DNA of 64,000 nt from NCBI GenBank assembly GCA_948735595.1, contig CAPXSA010000005.1:24325-88324 (forward strand), read 5' to 3'. The DNA comes from an uncultured Clostridia bacterium (GTDB lineage: Bacteria > Bacillota > Clostridia > TANB77 > CAG-508). The translations under genes were made by a program, and so were the position numbers. The notes under the pieces were generated by a model, which did not search any database, was not told the origin of the DNA, and saw nothing but the letters and a program-made list of their open reading frames with translations. This document shows, in pieces, positions 7,486 through 32,554 of this stretch. Within the stretch, counting starts at the first letter, position 1. The number at the start of each line of letters is the position of its first letter.

Positions 7486-9935
7486 ATGAGGCCATTTTGT
7501 ATTGCTACCATAGGTGGAATATTGGGAATTATTGTGGGGCTATACTTTAGAGGTATAGCTCTTTTTGTCATGTTTTTTATTTTATTCATTATATTCATGA
7601 TATTACTTTTTACAAAGCTTATAAAAAAGAAAGGAAAAGTTTTTGCTATATTTTTAATTAGTTTTATCCTATTTTATAGTCATATTTGCTTACAAGAAAA
7701 TAACTATGCAAACATAAATCAGAAATATGCTCAAAAGGAAGTTGAAGTACAAGCAATTGTTATCAAAGATAGGATAGAAAAGGAGTATAAAGATGTTTAC
7801 TATATTCAAGTAATAAAGATAAAGGGACAAGATAAAAAGCAAAACTTTAAAATGGTGTTAAATGTAAAAAGGCAAAAAGAAAAGAAGATTTTATTGGAAT
7901 ATGGAGATATGGTCTACTTTAAGGGAATTTATGAACAGCCAGATGAAGCTAGAAATGAAGGAGGATTTGATTATAGCAAATACCTTAAAACAAAGGGGAT
8001 AGCAGGAATAACTACGATAAAAGCAGAGGAAATAAAGGTGGTAGGTAAAAATCAGACTGGTGTGGTTGCAAGAGCTATACATGACATTAGACAAAATATA
8101 GTAGCAAAAGTAAGAAGAATTTTGCCAGAAGATATTGCTAATTTGTGTACAGGACTGTTGATAGGTGAAAAAACAGAATTATCAGAAGATATACAAGAGA
8201 CATTTCAAAAAAGCAGTTTATCCCATATGTTAGCTATTTCAGGTGCTCATGTTTCATATATTTTACTAGGGATAACTACTTTTATTCAAAAGTTAAAGCT
8301 TCATAAAAGGTGGGGAAAGGGCATTTTAATTCTCTTTTTCATTTTCTTTATGGCATTAACAGAATTTACTCCATCTGTTACTAGAAGTTGTATTATGGTG
8401 ATTTTACAATTGTTAGCAAGTATCCTATTTAGAAAATCAGATACTTATCAAAATTTAGCAATGAGTAGTTTTATCATTCTTCTCATAAATCCATATGCTT
8501 TATTAGAAATTGGATTTCAGCTCTCTTTTGGTGGAACTATTGGAATAGTAGTTTTTTCTAAGAAGTTACAAAGAATGAAAGATGATACTAAAAAAGAAAA
8601 GTTTACGAGTAAAAGGGGAGTACTAGTAGAAAAGACATTACACAAAGTAAAAGAAATGTGTATGGTTACTCTATCGGCTAATTTAGTTATTATTCCTATT
8701 ATGATGTATTACTTTAATACAATTTCACTTACTTTTTTCATTTCTAATTTATTGGCAAGCCCTATTTTAGGGATTAGCTTGATTTTAGGAATGATATTTA
8801 TGATATCGCTTTTGATATTACCTCTAGCAAAGTTAATTTCTTTGCTTTTATATTCTGTTTTACAAATACTTATATGGATAGCACAAGTTTCAAGTAATTT
8901 ACCCTTTTCACAGATTTTAGTTCCAACGCCTAAAATATGGCAAATTCTGTTATATTATCTAGTTCTAATAGTTATCTTTTTTCATAAAGCTAAATTATTT
9001 CTCCAATATTCATTTATGCTTAAATATCGAAAAGTTATGATAACAATATTACTTCTTCTTATGATTTCACCATCTATTTTACAAATCATTCCTGATAACA
9101 AATTAACCATTTCCTTTATTGATGTGGGGCAAGGGGATAGTATGTTAATTCAAACACCGTCTCGCAAAACCATATTGATAGATGGTGGGGGAAGTGAAAC
9201 TGGTAGTTTTAATGTAGGAGAAAAGACAGTAATTCCCTATTTATTAGATAAAGGAATTATGAGCATTGATTATATGATTTTCTCTCATTTTGATAGTGAC
9301 CACTGTCAAGGGCTGTTAAGTGTAATGGAAAAGCTAAAGGTAAAAAATGCTGTTATTAGTAACCAAGGTGAGAAGTCTAATAATTATATACAGTTTTTGA
9401 AAATAGCCAAAGCAAGGAATGTGAAGGTTATATCAGTACGAGCAGGAGATAGGATTACGATAGATAAAGAGTGTTATTTGTCGATTCTGTTTCCAAAACA
9501 GGAGCTTATTAAGGAAAATGTATTAAATAACAATTCATTAGTAGCAAAGTTTATATATCAGCCAAAACCAGGTAAAGAATTGAGTATATTGCTTACAGGA
9601 GATATAGAGAAAATAGCAGAAAAGCAGTTGATACAGATGTATCAAGATACAAATGAATTACAAGCAAATATCCTAAAAGTAGCACATCATCGGTTCTAAA
9701 ACATCTTCTACAATAGAATTTTTAGAGTTAGTGAAGCCAAAGATTGCATTAATAGGAGTTGGAGAAAAGAATATGTTTGGACATCCAAGTCAAGTGACAT
9801 TGGACAGTTTGACCAATTTGCGGAAGTAGAATTTATAGGACGGATGAAAGTGGAGAAATTACTATAACTATTAGTTGTAGGCGGAAATTTGAAAGTAAAA
9901 AAGAAAATAAAGGAATATCCATAGAACACATATAG
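7486..9935 (+). pseudogene. comEC: ComEC/Rec2 DNA internalisation channel, 3' end interrupted by +1 shifts at CGG 9691-9693 and 9821-9823 (possibly also 9882-9884)
   Basis: The 737-aa ORF has a competence membrane domain and a metallo-beta-lactamase domain (IDVGQGDS, HFDSDH) and stops at ..KVAHH-RF. Skipping C9691 gives HH-GSKTSSTIEFLELVKPKIALIGVGEKNMFGHPSQVTLDSLTNL. Skipping C9821 gives GSRIYRTDESGEITITIS. Confidence 0.9.
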
Positions 9936-10027: not shown

Positions 10028-10288
10028 ATGAGTAAGATAGAAAAACTATTAACAAGGATATATAGCAAACCAAAAGATTTTACCTATCAAGAATTAAAAA
10101 CTTTGTTAGAACAACTTGGATTTATAGAATATAACAAAGGTAAGACTTCTGGTTCAAGAGTTGAATTTATAGACAATAATACAAAAATCAAAATAAAAAT
10201 ACATAAACCACATCCAACAAATAATTTAAAGCCATATCAAATTGAAATTATTTTAGAAGAATTAAAGAAATGGGAGGGATTAAGATGA
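10028..10288 (+). CDS. hicA: HicA-family mRNA interferase toxin
   Basis: 86 aa. The ..FTYQELKTLLEQLGF..GSRVEF..KIHKPHP pattern is HicA-like, and the stop overlaps the hicB start (ATGA). Confidence 0.8.
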   Translation: MSKIEKLLTRIYSKPKDFTYQELKTLLEQLGFIEYNKGKTSGSRVEFIDNNTKIKIKIHKPHPTNNLKPYQIEIILEELKKWEGLR

Positions 10289-10641
10289 ATAATGTTTTAC
10301 AATACAAAGGATTTTGGACAAAGGTTAATTATGAAGAAGAAACTTCTACTTTTTGGGGAAAATTAGAGGATATTGAGGATTTAGTAAGTTTTGAGTCAAA
10401 TACAATAGAAGGATTAAAAAAGGAATTCAGAGATGCAGTAGAGGAACATATAAAGGAATGTGAGGAATTAAATAAAGACCCATATAAAAAATATAAAGGG
10501 AGTTTTAATGTACGTATAGAGCCAGAATTACACAGAAAAGCTACATTATTTGCAGAAAGTTTTAATATTTCGCTAAATCAATTTGTAGCTAAGGCAATTC
10601 GTGATGAAATAGAAGCTTGCGAAAGCAAAAGAGTTAAATAA
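10285..10641 (+). CDS. hicB: HicB-family antitoxin with a C-terminal RHH
   Basis: The YKGFWTKVNYEEETSTFWGKLEDIEDLVSFE N-domain is HicB-like, and FNVRIEPELHRKATLFAESFNISLNQFVAKAI is an RHH. GGGAGGG RBS before the ATG at 10285. Confidence 0.8.
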   Translation: MNNVLQYKGFWTKVNYEEETSTFWGKLEDIEDLVSFESNTIEGLKKEFRDAVEEHIKECEELNKDPYKKYKGSFNVRIEPELHRKATLFAESFNISLNQFVAKAIRDEIEACESKRVK

Positions 10642-10690: not shown

Positions 10691-11128
10691 TTAATTTATG
10701 ATATCTTTGAGGAATTCTAGTAGCTCAGTATCTTCTTGCTCTGTGTAACCAAGGACAATCTTTATGTCATTCTGGCTAAAAGTAATTATTGAATCGGTCT
10801 TTTTTACGGAACATGGCAACTGAAGAATAACTGTATTATTTTCAGCTTTGTAAGTCAGTGTATCTTCTCTCAGTGTGAGGGTATAAGATGGCGAAGTGAT
10901 GAAAGAAGAAATCAGTATTATCAACAAAAGAATGAATAATGCAATTATGAGAAGGCGAGAGAGGACTGTAAAGGTGGTAAGACTAAGCTGAAATGTACTT
11001 ACTATTGTGAAAATCAATGCAAGAACAACTAGGAATATAAATACCAATCCTAGTTCCAACAAGACTACCCTAGTAGAGAACTTTTTTCCTTCTTTCCGAA
11101 AGACCTTTTCTTCCTTAGAATTACACAT
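10691..11128 (-). CDS. Hypothetical membrane protein
   Basis: Start chosen at MCNSKEE, with AGGAGG 7 nt upstream. Two hydrophobic segments. In-frame CGG at 11096-11098 read as Arg (FRKEG). Confidence 0.6.
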   Translation of the reverse strand: MCNSKEEKVFRKEGKKFSTRVVLLELGLVFIFLVVLALIFTIVSTFQLSLTTFTVLSRLLIIALFILLLIILISSFITSPSYTLTLREDTLTYKAENNTVILQLPCSVKKTDSIITFSQNDIKIVLGYTEQEDTELLEFLKDIIN

Positions 11129-11367
11129 GATAATTCCTCCTGAAAATTTTTTTTGTACACAAAGTATGCGAATAACAGTATTATACCATACCTTATGTGA
11201 AATAGCAAATTTGAAAAAAATCATTTACAATAAAAAGTTGTTAGTATATAATATGAAACGATGGAAATAATAAAACAAAAGCAATTAAAATTTAGCATTT
11301 TTTAGGAGTGTTTTAATACAATAAAAAATGCATCAATTTTAAAAAAATACAAAAAGGAGATAAAAAA

Positions 11368-13977
11368 ATGGCAAAAGAAATTAGTGAAGAAGAGAAAAAT
11401 CGTATTCAAGATATGATTAATGGTCTAGTAGAAAGAGCAAAAAAAGCATCAGAAGAATATTTGAAATTGGACCAAGAACAAGTAGATGAAATCATAAAAC
11501 AAATGTCTATGGCAGGTTTAGAACACCATATGGAACTTGCTAAAATGGCAGTTGAAGAAACAGGTCGTGGTATTTATGAAGATAAAATTACAAAGAATAT
11601 GTTTGCAACAGAATATATTTATCATAGTATCAAATATGATAAAACAGTTGGTGTTATTTCTGAAAATGAAGAAGAAGGATATGAAGAAATTGCAGAGCCA
11701 ATTGGTATTATAGCGGGTGTTACACCTGTAACAAACCCAACATCTACTACTATGTTTAAGTCTATTATTGCAGCAAAAACAAGAAATGTTATCATTTTTG
11801 GATTTCACCCATCAGCACAAAAAAGCAGTAGTAGAGCAGCAGAAATTTTAAGAGATGCAGCAGTGAAAGCTGGTGCACCAGAAGATTGTATTTTATGGGT
11901 ACCAGAGCCATCAATTACAGCAACAACACTTTTAATGAATCACCCAGATGTTAATTTGATTTTAGCAACAGGTGGAAGTGGAATGGTAAAATCAGCATAC
12001 TCTTGTGGAAAGCCAGCATTAGGTGTAGGACCTGGAAATGTTCCTTGCTACATTGATAAAACAGCAAAACTAAAAACATCTGTTAATGACTTAGTGCTTT
12101 CAAAATCATTTGATAATGGAATGATTTGTGCTTCTGAGCAATCTGTTATTGTTGATAAAGAAATTAGTAAAGAATTTGAGAAATTAATGAAAGAATCTGG
12201 TTGCTATTTCTTAAACGCAGAACAAACACAAAAATTAAGAGATAGTATGTTTATCGAAGAAAAAGGATGTGCCTTAAATGCGGATATCGTAGGAAAAAGT
12301 CCTTATGATATCGCAAAAGGAGCAGGAATAGAAGTACCTCATGATACAAAAGTATTAGTATTAAAAGAAAACGGAGTAGGTATTGAATATCCATTCTCTA
12401 AGGAAAAATTAAGTCCAGTTCTTGCTTACTATATTGTAAAAGGTGCAGATGAGGGAATTGAACTTGCTGAAAAATTAATTGAATTTGGTGGATTAGGACA
12501 TTCAGCAGTTATTCATTCAGAAGATAAGGAAACTATTCGCAAATTCTCAGAACGAGTAAAAGTAGGAAGGATTATTGTAAATTCTCCATCTACTCATGGA
12601 GCAATTGGTGATATCTATAACACCAATATGCCATCATTGACTCTTGGATGTGGAACCTTTGGAGGAAATTCTACAACAGCAAATGTATCAAGTGTTAATC
12701 TAGTAAATGTAAAAAGAGTAGCAAAAAGGAGAGTTAATATGCAATGGTTCAAAATTCCTGATAAAATCTATTTTGAAGCAGGCTCTATTCAATACTTAGA
12801 AAAGATGCCTAATATTTCAAGAGCATTTATTGTAACAGACCCAGGAATGGTGAAATTTGGCTATGTAGACAAAATCTTATATCATCTAAGAAAAAGAAAA
12901 GGATATGTACATTCACAAATCTTTTCAGATGTAGAATCAGATCCATCATTTGAAACAGTATATAGAGGAGTAGAAATGATGAGAGGATTTAATCCTGATG
13001 TTATTATTGCATTAGGTGGAGGAAGTGCTATTGATGCTGCAAAAGGAATGTGGTTATTCTATGAACATCCAGAAGCAGACGCAGAGGGCATGAAATTAAA
13101 ATTCATGGATATTCGTAAACGTACGTATAAATTCCCAACCTTAGGTAACAAATCAAAAATGGTAGCAATTCCAACTACTTCTGGAACAGGTTCTGAAGTT
13201 ACTTCATTTGCTGTTATTTCTGATAAAGTAAACAACAAGAAATATCCTTTAGCAGACTATGAATTAACACCAGATGTAGCCATTATAGACCCAGACTTGG
13301 TAATGAGTTTACCACAAACAATTACAGCAGATACAGGTATGGATGTATTAACACATGCAATTGAAGCTTATGTTTCTAATATGGCATCTGACTATACAGA
13401 TGGATTAGCCGAAAAAGCAGTAGAATTAGTATTTAAGAATTTAAGAGAAGCATATAATCATGGAGATAACGCCCTTGCAAGAGAAAAAATGCATAATGCA
13501 AGTACTATTGCAGGAATGGCATTTACTAATGCATTTTTAGGAATTAACCACTCCTTAGCACATAAAATAGGAGCAGAGTTTCATATGCCACATGGAAGAA
13601 TTAATGCTATTTTGTTACCTTATGTTATCAGATATAATAGTAAAATGCCAAGTAAATTTGTATCATTCCCTAAGTATGAGTATTTTATAGCAGACCAAAA
13701 ATATGCAGATTTATCAAGAAGAATGAACTTCCCTGCATATGGAAATGAAGAAGGAGTTAACTCTTTAATTAAAGAGATTCAAAAATTAAATGAAGACTTA
13801 AATATTCCAAAATCTTTCCAAGAAGCGGGAATAGTAGAGCAAGAATTTTTAAGTAAAGTAGATATGTTAGCAGATAGAGCGTTTGAAGATCAATGTACTA
13901 CTGCCAATCCAAGACTTCCATTAGTAGAAGAGTTAAAACAGATTTTATTAGATAGTTACTATGGAAGAGAAGTTTAA
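11368..13977 (+). CDS. adhE: Bifunctional acetaldehyde-CoA / alcohol dehydrogenase
   Basis: 869 aa with an N-terminal ALDH domain and a C-terminal Fe-ADH domain ([10 protein letters not shown], HxxxH region). Confidence 0.96.
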
Positions 13978-13996
13978 AAGTAAATATTTTTTATAA

Positions 13997-14042
13997 ATTC
14001 CAGCTAAATAGATTACAATTTTGTAATCTATTTAGCTGGAAT
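13997..14042 (+). terminator. Long perfect hairpin after adhE
   Basis: ATTCCAGCTAAATAGATTACAA-tt-TTGTAATCTATTTAGCTGGAAT, a 22-bp stem, with only a short T tract following. Confidence 0.6.
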
Positions 14043-14098
14043 TTGCTATATTAAATGACTAAATAACTACACTAAATTTGGCATAATTAGGTAAAACA

Positions 14099-14127
14099 TT
14101 GACAATTTACATAAAAAGTTATATAAT
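14099..14127 (+). promoter_or_regulatory. Consensus sigma-A promoter (TTGACA-17-TATAAT) driving the Spo0A_C orphan, followed by palindrome ATTGGC-aag-GCCAAT
   Basis: Hexamers at 14099-14104 and 14122-14127. AGGAGAG RBS before the ATG at 14176. Confidence 0.7.
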
Positions 14128-14175
14128 AATCAACAGATTGGCAAGGCCAATTAATACAAAGAAGGAGAGATAAGC

Positions 14176-14679
14176 ATGTCTAATGAGCGGAAATTGGACC
14201 TGAGCAAGTCATTGATGGAGTTAGCTGAGGAGGGGTGGACTCTTCAGGAGGTACTTGAGGCAATCGGCCTTCAGCCGGTTGCCAAGCAGGAACCTGAGGA
14301 TCACGAGATGCCTGAGAAGGTGGAACTTACCAAACGGATTACCGGCATCCTCCAGGAAATCGGCGTTCCGGCTCACATCAAGGGATACCAGTACCTTCGG
14401 GATGCAATCCAAAGAGCGGTGGAGAACGGGAAGACCATCAACACCGTGACCAAGACCCTGTATCTTGCTGTGGCGAGGGAGTACCAGACCACCCCCTCCA
14501 GGGTGGAAAGGACCATCCGCCACGCTATCGAGGTTGCATGGAGCCGTGGCAATGTGGAAACTTTGGAGAGCTACTTTGGCTACACGGTTAACAGAAACAA
14601 GGGTAAGCCTGCCAACAGCGAGTTTATCGCATTGATCGCCGACAAGCTCCGCTTGGAGGGCTATGGCTCCGAGCAGTAA
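14176..14679 (+). CDS. Stand-alone Spo0A C-terminal (DNA-binding effector) domain protein lacking a receiver domain; strongly G+C-rich relative to the host
   Basis: [86 protein letters not shown] matches the Spo0A_C signature. Codon usage (CTG, GAG, CGG, GCC) is unlike the neighbouring genes. Confidence 0.85.
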
Positions 14680-14698
14680 TTATCTTTTCCCGCAAAGG

Positions 14699-14726
14699 GC
14701 CCGAGCATTTGCTCGGTTCTTTTTTG
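14699..14726 (+). terminator. Intrinsic terminator of the Spo0A_C gene
   Basis: CCGAGCA-tt-TGCTCGG followed by TTCTTTTTT. Confidence 0.75.
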
Positions 14727-14816
14727 CCTTTTTTGAACAATCTTAATGATATACTTGTATTTTACGAAAAAAACGGATATAATAAGCACGAAGAAAAAGA
14801 GAGGAGTTGAACTAGA

Positions 14817-15101
14817 TTGCAAGTATCGAAGGAAGAATTATTACACATTGCAAATTTAGCAAGCTTAAAATTAAAAGAAGAAGAGATTGATAATTATTTG
14901 TTAAATTTACAAGATATTTTAAATTTTGCAAATATTGTTAGTAAAGCGCCAGTAGAGAATCTACCAGAAACAATTGGAGCAAATGATAAATATAATGTAT
15001 TTCGCAAAGATGAGATACAAGTATTTGAAGATAATGAATTATTAATTAGTAATGCACCAGAAGCAGAAAGGAATATGTTTAAAATTCCTAAGGTTCTTTA
15101 G
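14817..15101 (+). CDS. gatC: Asp/Glu-tRNA amidotransferase subunit C
   Basis: 94 aa with a TTG start after GAGGAG. The ..HIANLASLKLKEEE..NL..IL.F pattern is GatC-like, and gatA-gatB follow. Confidence 0.9.
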   Translation: MQVSKEELLHIANLASLKLKEEEIDNYLLNLQDILNFANIVSKAPVENLPETIGANDKYNVFRKDEIQVFEDNELLISNAPEAERNMFKIPKVL

Positions 15102-15120
15102 TAAATTATAATATGCAAAG

Positions 15121-15245
15121 AATATATAATATCGCTTGACCTTGCTGTCCGTTGCTTTCATATGTTAAAGACAAATAAAAGAAAGCAACGGAAGGCGCTC
15201 GGCTATGCCTCGCCTTGCGTGGTCTACGCTTTTATTATATATATC
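15121..15245 (+). repeat. Dispersed structured repeat, family 2, copy 1 (inside the gatC-gatA spacer)
   Basis: CCTTGCTGTCCGTTGCTTTC-loop-GAAAGCAACGGAAGGCGCTCGG..CCTCGCCTTGCG.GG.CTAC is nearly identical to 27959-28095. The 11-bp stem CCGTTGCTTTC/GAAAGCAACGG is conserved while the loop differs, and the flanks are AT-rich inverted repeats. Confidence 0.8.
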
Positions 15246-15285
15246 TTTACAAATAAAATATACAGAAAGAAAGGAGTATTTTAGC

Positions 15286-16764
15286 ATGAATATAACAAAA
15301 TTAACTGTGCATGAACTGAAAGAAAAGTTAGATAAAAAAGAATTAACTGTAGAAGAAATTGTCAAAGCTTATGCACAAAGAATAGAAGAAAAAGAAAAAG
15401 ATGTACAAGCTTTTATAACAACATTAACAGAAAATGCAGTAGAAAAGGCAAAAGAAATAGATGACAGAAAGGCTAAAGGAGAAACACAATCACCATATAG
15501 CGGAATTCCAATAGGAATTAAAGATAATATTTGTACAAAGGGTATTAAAACAACTTGTGCTTCTAAAATGTTAGCAAACTTTATAGCACCATATGATGCA
15601 ACAGTTATTGAAAAGCTAAATCAAGAAAATCTTATCTCACTAGGAAAACTTAATATGGATGAGTTTGCTATGGGATCTTCCACAGAATATTCGTACTTCA
15701 AAAAGACAAGAAATCCTTGGAATTTAAATACTGTACCAGGCGGATCTTCGGGTGGTGTAGCGGCAGCAGTAGCAGCTGATATGGTGCCTTGGGCGTTAGG
15801 GTCTGATACAGGTGGGTCTATCCGTCAACCAGCTAGCCTTTGTGGAGTAGTAGGGTTAAAGCCAACTTATGGTTTAGTATCTCGCTATGGATTAGTGGCT
15901 TTTGCGTCTTCTTTAGACCAAATCGGACCAATTACAAAAGACGTAGAAGACAGTGCCATTTTATTAAATATGATAACAGGACATGATGAAAAAGATTCCA
16001 CATCAGTAGAATTAGAAAAGAAAGATTATACAAAAGCACTCAAAAACGATGTAAAAGGTTTAAAGATAGGTATTCCAAAAGAATGGTATGGAGAAGGTCT
16101 TAATGAAGAAGTAAAAGCAAAGTTAGAGCAAGCAATTGAGAAATATAAAGAATTAGGAGCCATTGTAGAAGAATGCTCTTTAGATGTAGCAAATTATGCT
16201 TTAGCTACTTACTATATCGTTGCCTGTGCAGAAGCAAGTTCCAATTTAGGAAGATTTGACGGAATTCGTTATGGGTATAGAGCAGAGAATTACACTAATC
16301 TAAAAGAATTATTTAAAAATTCTAGAAGTGAAGGCTTTGGAGATGAAGTAAAAAGGAGAATCATTTTAGGTACTTATGTGCTATCTTCAGGTTATTATGA
16401 TGCTTATTACAAAAAAGCACAACAGGTGAGAACCTTAGTAAAGCAAAAATTTGATGAGGCTTTTGAAAAATATGATGTGTTATTAACTCCAACATCACCA
16501 ACAGTTGCTTTTGAATTTGGAGCAAAGTCAAATAATCCACTAGAAATGTACTTGGCAGATATTTGTACTGTTTCCATAAATATTGCAGGTCTTCCGGGGA
16601 TTTCACTTCCTTGCGGAGTAGATAGCAAAGGTATGCCAATTGGAATGCAATTAGTTGGAAATCGTTTCTCAGAAGAAACCATTTTAAATGTAGCATATAC
16701 TTATGAACAAGCAACAAAATTTAGAGAGCAATATAAACCAACATTTAGAGGGGGTGCTAACTAA
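15286..16764 (+). CDS. gatA: Asp/Glu-tRNA amidotransferase subunit A
   Basis: Start at MNITKLTV, with AAAGGAG 9 nt upstream. Amidase signature [24 protein letters not shown]. The longer track ORF from 15205 only reads through the repeat. Confidence 0.95.
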
Positions 16765-32042: not shown

Positions 32043-32220
32043 AGAAAACATAGTTGCCTAAGAGGTAACAAAATACTTCCGTTAAGGAAGAATACATTGA
32101 AAAGGAGAGAATAGCTTATGCGATGTCGGAACAGCTTTTCTATGAAAAATTCGGAAAAGATGTGACCTGCACCGGCGGCCGCCTAGGCCTGACCTGGGCT
32201 AGCTGAAAGGAGTCGTAACA

Positions 32221-32250
32221 TGCGGAGGTACCCAACTGGTTTCAAGTAGC
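32221..32250 (+). repeat. 30-nt internal motif, copy 1 (TGCGGAGGTACCCAACTGGTTTCAAGTAGC)
   Basis: 24/30 identical to copy 3. Confidence 0.8.
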
Positions 32251-32291
32251 AAAATAACGGCACCACAGTAAAGTGAAGGAGGGGCGAAAAA

Positions 32292-32321
32292 TGCCTCGGT
32301 TTACAAGTGGATTCCTGTAGC
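32292..32321 (+). repeat. 30-nt internal motif, copy 2 (TGCCTCGGTTTACAAGTGGATTCCTGTAGC)
   Basis: 26/30 identical to copy 3. Confidence 0.8.
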
Positions 32322-32457
32322 TGTAGCCCCTTGGGGGCCAAAACGAACAGCAAAAAAATCTTTTTCGCTACATATATGGGGCCCATCTAGAGCGCTGATG
32401 CGCCAAGAGGATGTATGCCTGCAAAAATATTAGCGGAAGAAAGGTGTGAGTGTGACA

Positions 32458-32487
32458 TGCCGCGGTTTCCAACTGGATTCCAGTAGC
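32458..32487 (+). repeat. 30-nt internal motif, copy 3 (TGCCGCGGTTTCCAACTGGATTCCAGTAGC)
   Basis: Contains the hairpin ACTGG-att-CCAGT. Confidence 0.8.
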
Positions 32488-32520
32488 CTGAACAACAGAC
32501 CCGAGCTATATCTCGAAAAA

Positions 32521-32554
32521 CGGGCGCCCTATTTGGGGCGCCCGAGTCTTTTTT
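32521..32554. terminator. Strong G+C-rich bidirectional terminator
   Basis: CGGGCGCCC-tatttg-GGGCGCCCG followed by AGTCTTTTTT on the plus strand. TTTTTCGAG follows the stem on the minus strand, downstream of the CDF gene. Confidence 0.85.

Follow-up and report, generated by a model that had tools for sequence, protein, structure and literature searches.

Genes for receiver-less Spo0A proteins are so far known from phages and mobile elements, which were taken to carry them as a means of hijacking sporulation. Human-gut phages carry truncated spo0A homologues that were read as free of the phosphorelay (Schwartz et al., mBio 2023, PMC10294663), and the Spo0A_C domain (PF08769) is enriched on mobile elements of Firmicutes (Jiang et al. 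2019, PMC6907783). According to the account of earlier work (Grimsley 1994, Ireton 1993) given in PMC10294663, the isolated Spo0A C-domain binds 0A boxes and activates transcription once it is freed of the receiver. Laboratory C-terminal fragments and the sad67 allele, in which the receiver is removed or crippled, are phosphorylation-independent and provide a mechanistic precedent for the gene described here, which is natural and encodes an added N-terminal module.

This gene lies in a 64,000-nucleotide stretch of DNA from an uncultured Clostridia bacterium (the window). Canonical spo0A usually adjoins spoIVB, whereas the window gene is located between adhE and gatC. Its product has the same complete effector domain as canonical Spo0A (TIGR02875; PDB 1LQ1 and 1FC3) but lacks the receiver domain and the phospho-acceptor Asp, and has an N-terminal module of its own. 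It shares the effector-domain-only architecture with the truncated spo0A of phages; unlike these, it is chromosomal, lies between housekeeping genes, is syntenic across species and has no adjacent phage or integrase genes. On viral contigs the GC content of the spo0A gene tracks that of the contig, whereas the window gene does not follow its surroundings. Polymorphic regulator cassettes with conserved flanks are known from the Bacillus comQXP and the pneumococcal comCD pherotype loci, which likewise have deeply diverged mosaic alleles exchanged between lineages; the window locus differs from them in having no signalling peptide or partner gene and in an overall dN/dS below 1.

A further group of short, chromosomal, receiver-less Spo0A_C proteins comprises 170–186-aa sequences ('MEQLKV...EFQIMITVPSG'; P0006–P0040), which differ from the window gene in N-terminus and genomic context and have a GC content of 0.42, equal to that of the host. 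These proteins, starting MEQLKVVTQQDNERMF...EFQIMITVPSG (locus L097, 8001–8513), are very widespread: P0017 alone was recorded in 228 assembly blocks, and its surroundings are ordinary chromosome, with genes for MatE and glycogen synthase on either side. By eye, the N-terminus of these proteins resembles a receiver cut down to beta1-alpha1-beta2 and lacking the acidic pocket. For the window gene we favour, as the probable if not secure reading, an expressed chromosomal Spo0A paralogue without a receiver, carried in an exchangeable cassette whose GC richness is maintained and is not the remnant of a recent transfer.

A Spo0A effector domain behind a lineage-specific N-terminal module

The 167-aa product (Table 1) matches Pfam Spo0A_C (PF08769) over residues 55–158, covering model positions 1–104 of 104 with 146.4 bits (E 3e-43; the gathering cut-off is 25 bits), while Response_reg (REC, PF00072) has zero matches in the protein even at E<=1. 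The NCBIfam Spo0A equivalog TIGR02875 aligns over model positions 137–258 of 262 only, and its score of 181 bits falls below the trusted cut-off of 200 bits, so the protein does not qualify as a Spo0A orthologue by this model. All three motifs quoted in the sequence-only reading are present in the translation, and its description of a complete Spo0A C-domain without a receiver is borne out by the full Pfam match, the absence of Response_reg and the restriction of the TIGR02875 match to the C-terminal half. The 198 nt separating adhE from the gene hold no ORF of at least 40 aa, so no receiver encoded upstream has been overlooked.

The effector domain aligns without gaps over 117 residues with the Spo0A C-domain structures PDB 1LQ1 and 1FC3 (E 1e-41). 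The FGYTV and KPxNSEFIA segments are kept, and the sole change in the DNA-recognition helix relative to 1LQ1 is from Ala to Thr. The base-contacting Glu/Arg/Arg of SRVERAIRH, which we take to be E213, R214 and R217 in the B. subtilis numbering of Zhao et al. 2002, are in place by the alignment to 1LQ1. AlphaFold models residues 45–160 mostly with pLDDT above 90.

Within the N-terminal module AlphaFold places helices at residues 7–18 and 23–29, with low confidence. With 13 D/E versus 7 K/R, the first 55 residues carry a net acidic charge, as the sequence-only reading had stated, but its view of this part as unrelated did not survive: the motif found here is common to most homologues at the same site. 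The linker that follows, flexible and predicted to be disordered, retains 7–8 of 22 residues in either of two sister-species alleles (L090 and L094), with indels. A Pfam scan of the N-modules gave weak scattered matches only (UBA, H-NS_N, Rho_N, GerE), and a protein profile search with the 48-aa N-module alone returned 35 candidates, none with E<=10. A by-eye likeness to the receiver's DNRELVSLLSEYIEG was pursued as a possible receiver remnant and rejected, as hhalign against Spo0A receivers gave a probability of 0.1%. An antisense ORF at 14221–14523 was likewise rejected as a gene, since the window allele has stops in that frame; stop-free antisense frames arise because TTA, CTA and TCA codons are avoided.

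Table 1. Features of the adhE–gatC interval (window coordinates)
Feature	Position	Strand	Basis or remark
adhE terminator, perfect AT-rich hairpin with 20-bp stem	13998–14041	+	Terminator scan; upstream limit of the variable interval
Conserved AT-rich block AAATTTGGCATAATTAGGTAAAAC upstream of the -35 element	14078–14098	+	84–93% identical among window, L090 and L094
Sigma-A-type promoter TTGACA-17-TATAAT	14099–14127	+	12/12 consensus positions
Perfect palindrome ATTGGC-AAG-GCCAAT at the transcript start	14137–14151	+	Single occurrence in the window
Strong ribosome-binding site GAAGGAGAG, 8 nt before ATG	14161–14169	+	Read from the sequence; unpaired in the predicted fold
Receiver-less Spo0A ORF	14176–14679	+	167 aa; GC-rich; between adhE and gatC
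N-terminal module, residues 1–33 (helix, G[WY] turn, helix)	14176–14274	+	Common to at least 10 family members at the locus
Acidic linker, residues 34–55, the most variable part	14275–14340	+	pLDDT below 50 at residues 31–44
Spo0A effector (DNA-binding and transactivation) domain, residues 56–167, and stop codon	14341–14679	+	Pfam Spo0A_C; alignment to 1LQ1/1FC3; pLDDT above 90
Intrinsic terminator, GC-rich 6-bp stem (14701–14716) then T run	14701–14726	+	Terminator scan
Putative separate gatC promoter TTGTAT-17-TATAAT	14755–14783	+	By eye, below scan threshold; block kept in L090 and L094

Transcription and control elements of the adhE–gatC interval

Public assemblies contain the identical protein in 58 blocks, among them the NCBI MAG GCA_948691615.1, and it lies between adhE and gatC in all six of the contigs listed. 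Many different studies of the mouse gut contributed the metagenomic runs in which the gene occurs. The stretch 13476–15400, including both GC junctions, is covered by single contigs of independent metagenomes with no differences. Metatranscriptome contigs from four mouse-gut runs cover only 14188–14691; they end at 14688–14691, before the terminator, with no joining to adhE or gatC, and in two of the four runs neither neighbour is represented by any contig. Transcript depth is similar to or above that of adhE, contig depth being a crude measure. A monocistronic transcript of the gene thus occurs in vivo. Two doubts attached to the sequence-only reading, that the segment might be an assembly chimera at its GC junctions and that the gene might be silent, are settled by these contigs: the gene is real, and it is transcribed alone in the four metatranscriptomes. 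Its placement between the adhE terminator and gatCAB is also right, the order being the same in independent contigs.

Homology to L090 and L094 disappears from the adhE terminator to about 14075, and the sequence immediately 5' of the conserved AT-rich block cannot be aligned among the three loci. The block itself is possibly an UP element or operator. The strong host-type promoter expected from the sequence alone is present with every consensus position; it is kept in L090, L094 and a further locus (L001), and is homologous to the promoters of the genes in L015 and L019. The stems of the palindrome are kept in L090 and L094 while its loop is variable, and in the predicted fold it forms a 7-bp stem that leaves the ribosome-binding site unpaired. 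The palindrome serves either as an RNA hairpin at the 5' terminus or as an operator in the DNA, or in both ways. Rfam families have zero matches in the window.

Several other features of the window were noted. A HicA toxin/HicB antitoxin pair occupies 10028–10641, 3.5 kb upstream of the Spo0A_C gene, and is followed by an unannotated membrane-like ORF of 177 aa on the minus strand (10691–11224). Downstream, between clpC and a cation-efflux gene, there is a non-coding stretch of about 450 nt with GC about 0.50 (32100–32550, plus strand), in which a 36-nt motif (GTAACATGCGGAGGTACCCAACTGGTTTCAAGTAGC or a variant of it) occurs three times, starting from 32215, 32286 and 32452, and which ends in a strong GC hairpin and U run on the plus strand, with a fold z-score of -2.6. 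It has no ORF, tRNA, tmRNA or Rfam match, and may be an undescribed structured RNA. At 15097–15292, one metagenome contig (run X15) omits 194 nt between gatC and gatA, a sign that this spacer, which is unusually long, is polymorphic for an indel.

The adhE-linked family and its GC-rich alleles

The gene stands out sharply from the genome in base composition. Its GC content is 0.55 and its GC3 0.70, against a genome GC of 0.31 and GC3 of about 0.15; GC3 in the neighbouring gatC is 0.16. In 200-nt windows GC is 0.53–0.56 within the gene and 0.25–0.30 beside it, and the sharp step coincides with the coding sequence plus terminator. The relative adaptiveness to host codon usage is 0.22, compared with 0.57–0.77 for 24 host ORFs, and the gene has three CGG codons, compared with one in the 10,143 codons of these ORFs. 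The earlier description of G+C-rich coding with codons atypical of the host is therefore correct. There are no tRNA genes in the window, and only one, tRNA-Leu(TAA), across 60 related loci.

An AdhE scan with one genome per species yielded 80 related species, all uncultured Clostridia with GC 0.25–0.34, including Clostridium sp. CAG:567 and CAG:273. The comparison of syntenic adhE–gatC intervals that the sequence-only reading had proposed recovered homologues at the same site. The interval varies between species: it is empty (189–202 bp) in L014 and L024, and where it is occupied it holds a Spo0A_C-only gene of 145–190 aa. With a family HMM, 12 of 76 species were found to have a Spo0A_C-only ORF next to adhE: in 10 it follows adhE at a distance of up to 1.2 kb, and in two it lies just upstream. 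These adhE-linked homologues are 22–46% identical to the window protein. Most members of the family share an N-terminal motif of a helix, G[WY], three residues, [DE][LV] and a second helix, and the window gene belongs to the family as defined by a helix-G[WY]-helix N-module, linker and Spo0A_C in 140–175 aa beside adhE. By these sequence comparisons, the N-terminal module is the hallmark of a lineage-specific family residing beside adhE. GC3 exceeds that of the flanks in 15 of 16 family members, the exception being L079. Tandem pairs of highly diverged members, 13–26% identical to the window protein, directly follow adhE in L028 (2981–4083) and L035 (8684–9836). In L090, an IS-type transposase (rve/HTH_28) at 1150–2088 lies between adhE and the cassette, whose promoter is intact.

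Full-length matches among 5.8 billion proteins were limited to P0001 (98%), P0003 and P0004 (both 66%); the truncated P0002 and P0005 represent the same allele (99–100% over 64–69% of the query). The genes of P0001, P0003 and P0004 are all immediately upstream of gatC, in species whose GatA and AdhE fragments are 94–95% identical to those of the window. Sister-species alleles at the adhE–gatC site, 63–69% identical in protein to the window gene's product, have GC 0.56 and GC3 0.70–0.72, while flanks or gatC have a GC3 of 0.15–0.19 in the window, L090 and L094. GC richness extends over the whole coding sequence, N-module included. Between the window and L090 or L094, dS is about 1.0 in the gene and 0.5–0.68 in the flanks, and dN is 0.20–0.24 against 0.03–0.07; over all allele pairs dN/dS is 0.16–0.39. 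Third-position differences between the window and sites where L090 and L094 agree are symmetrical (20 W/S versus 17 S/W). Polarised changes on the L090 and L094 branches (15 S>W, 10 W>S) give an equilibrium GC3 of 0.71, whereas genes in the flanks yield no more than 0.34 along these branches (binomial P=4e-4), an estimate from 25 events by parsimony that is biased with a distant outgroup and includes divergence stemming in part from imported segments.

The promoter/5'UTR and terminator/gatC-promoter blocks are 82–96% identical among the window, L090 and L094, while identity drops to 51–80% in the interior of the coding sequence. Between L090 and L094, codons 1–13 and 104–167 are 95% identical with a flank-like dS of 0.07–0.14; codons 14–103 are 74% identical with a dS of 0.73. 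As judged from these sequences, the two alleles form a clear mosaic, with a breakpoint near 14480. In L001–L003 the cassette is 98–100% identical to that of the window, whereas gatC is 95% and gatA 88.5% identical. Conserved blocks, a mosaic coding sequence and the exchange seen in L001–L003 together imply that the locus behaves as an exchangeable cassette crossing species boundaries. A separate observation concerns adhE: the strains of L005–L007 and L009 match the window without a difference between the cassette and the end of gatA, yet differ by 5.6% over the 3' kilobase of adhE (12978–13977), and this pattern indicates that adhE itself is a within-species recombination mosaic.

Origin of the cassette and its proposed role

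Profile and single-sequence searches of the 5.8 billion proteins found no closer relative outside the adhE–gatC locus, and the best matches in IMG/VR and GenBank phages reach about 65% identity over the C-domain only. A phage or plasmid donor was rejected; several of the 'viral' matches are full-length Spo0A. These IMG/VR contigs, labelled viral yet encoding Spo0A complete with its receiver domain (L104, L105–L112, L117–L119), probably derive from host DNA or from the edges of prophages, and figures for 'phage spo0A' drawn from collections of this kind should be checked. The C-domain is 62–71% identical to canonical Spo0A. In a neighbour-joining tree the C-domains of the three GC-rich alleles (window, L090, L094) fall among canonical Spo0A proteins from GC-rich Clostridia and not with their AT-rich locus mates, and across the family GC3 rises with similarity to the B. 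subtilis protein (rho 0.65). Both patterns would fit an older foreign origin of the GC-rich allele lineage, which is possible.

A single recent acquisition from a higher-GC clostridial lineage or phage, unameliorated behind a host promoter, was the explanation first offered from the sequence, and we now hold it to be very unlikely. It would account for the sharp GC step exactly at the coding sequence and terminator, for the codon usage foreign to the host and for the affinity of the C-domain to GC-rich Spo0A proteins, and truncated spo0A is known on gut phages and mobile elements (PMC10294663, PMC6907783). However, sister species have equally GC-rich alleles at the same site, the third-position substitution pattern is stationary at about 0.7, and by our own arithmetic a remnant decaying under host bias at a dS of about 1 would require an ancestral GC3 above 1. 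Nor does the rest of the gene look newly arrived: its promoter and UTR are orthologous to those of AT-rich family members, its N-module is common to resident ones, and the searches above found no GC-rich or phage homologue any closer. Neither composition decay, nor absence from close relatives, nor a donor-like homologue was seen, and the data exclude a single recent transfer that is passively ameliorating. Carriage on a phage or mobile element is contradicted by adhE and gatCAB, which flank the gene in every contig shown or recovered. The only mobile-type genes nearby are hicAB, about 3.5 kb upstream, and the IS inserted in L090, and the sequence-only reading was accurate in placing none directly beside the gene in the window. 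To an assembly chimera or engineered construct we give practically no credence: the consensus promoter and sharp GC boundaries do look designed, but contigs from independent mouse-gut metagenomes of different studies cross both junctions, and diverged natural alleles exist (P0003, P0004).

Repeated import is also on the unlikely side, though less so than one recent transfer. Here the GC-rich alleles would be drawn from a pool in unsampled GC-richer bacteria, phages or mobile elements and enter by homologous recombination, possibly through natural competence; the crossovers would fall in the flanks or where the coding sequence is conserved at its ends. The L090/L094 mosaic, the exchange of the cassette between species, a ComEC-like competence gene at 7486–9699, the GC3 excess throughout the family apart from L079 (n=16) and the enrichment of PF08769 on Firmicutes mobile elements (PMC6907783) are all in line with such a pool; its GC-rich source, however, is absent from every database searched, the only known carriers are AT-rich genomes, and the imported segments carry the lineage-specific N-module. 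Highly improbable is a decaying or non-functional remnant, either a truncated spo0A pseudogene or selfish cargo without a role. The missing receiver, the patchy distribution among species with empty sites and a dN about seven times that of the flanks might be taken as decay, but every allele has an intact ORF, dN/dS is well below 1 over all pairs, conservation is strict in the DNA-recognition helix and extends to promoter, hairpin and RBS, and the gene is transcribed in vivo at a depth comparable to or above that of adhE. We therefore return to the reading given at the outset, a resident and expressed paralogue in an exchangeable cassette with maintained GC richness.

For this resident paralogue, Spo0A biology suggests that the protein is most likely a phosphorylation-independent regulator binding 0A-type boxes. 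With the inhibitory phospho-accepting receiver missing and the recognition helix intact, it should bind 0A-type sites without input from the phosphorelay, and would either activate 0A-controlled promoters or occupy them. The N-module may supply oligomerisation, dimerisation or partner contact in place of the phosphorylated receiver. Possible effects include activation, competition with a canonical Spo0A and control of adhE, the gene's constant neighbour. The gene is transcribed on its own from the consensus sigma-A promoter, and its transcript begins with a hairpin that leaves the RBS accessible in the predicted fold. Its deeply diverged mosaic coding alleles pass between related species by homologous recombination, and on this reading the GC-rich, rare-codon composition is a maintained property of the allele lineage. 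The window shows no enrichment of the 0A box TGNCGAA (12 matches versus 8.8 expected), and none was found close to the promoter of adhE or to that of the gene itself. A SASP gene about 7 kb downstream of the gene hints that the organism forms spores.

Why GC3 stays high invites several explanations. It is quite unlikely, in our estimate, that the GC-rich, rare-codon coding sequence is a post-transcriptional control device of a constitutively active and constitutively transcribed regulator. Such a device might gate translation by tRNAs that the host hardly uses (e.g. CGG-reading), a mirror image of Streptomyces bldA/TTA, or might spare the GC-rich mRNA from endoribonucleases or toxins that prefer AU, for which HicA, encoded nearby, would be an example. 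If this were true, selection would hold GC3 near 0.7 in a genome of about 0.15 despite allele diversification and recombination. Further candidates are import from a GC-rich pool and, if the locus is a recombination hotspot, biased gene conversion.

In the uncultured gut Clostridia described here, the receiver-less Spo0A architecture is that of a resident, expressed chromosomal family with its own N-module. A coding sequence that lies far from genomic composition across diverged alleles challenges the practice of reading atypical GC as recent transfer, and makes the locus a system for testing selection on synonymous composition. The family suggests that the hosts themselves use phosphorelay-independent regulators of the Spo0A type.
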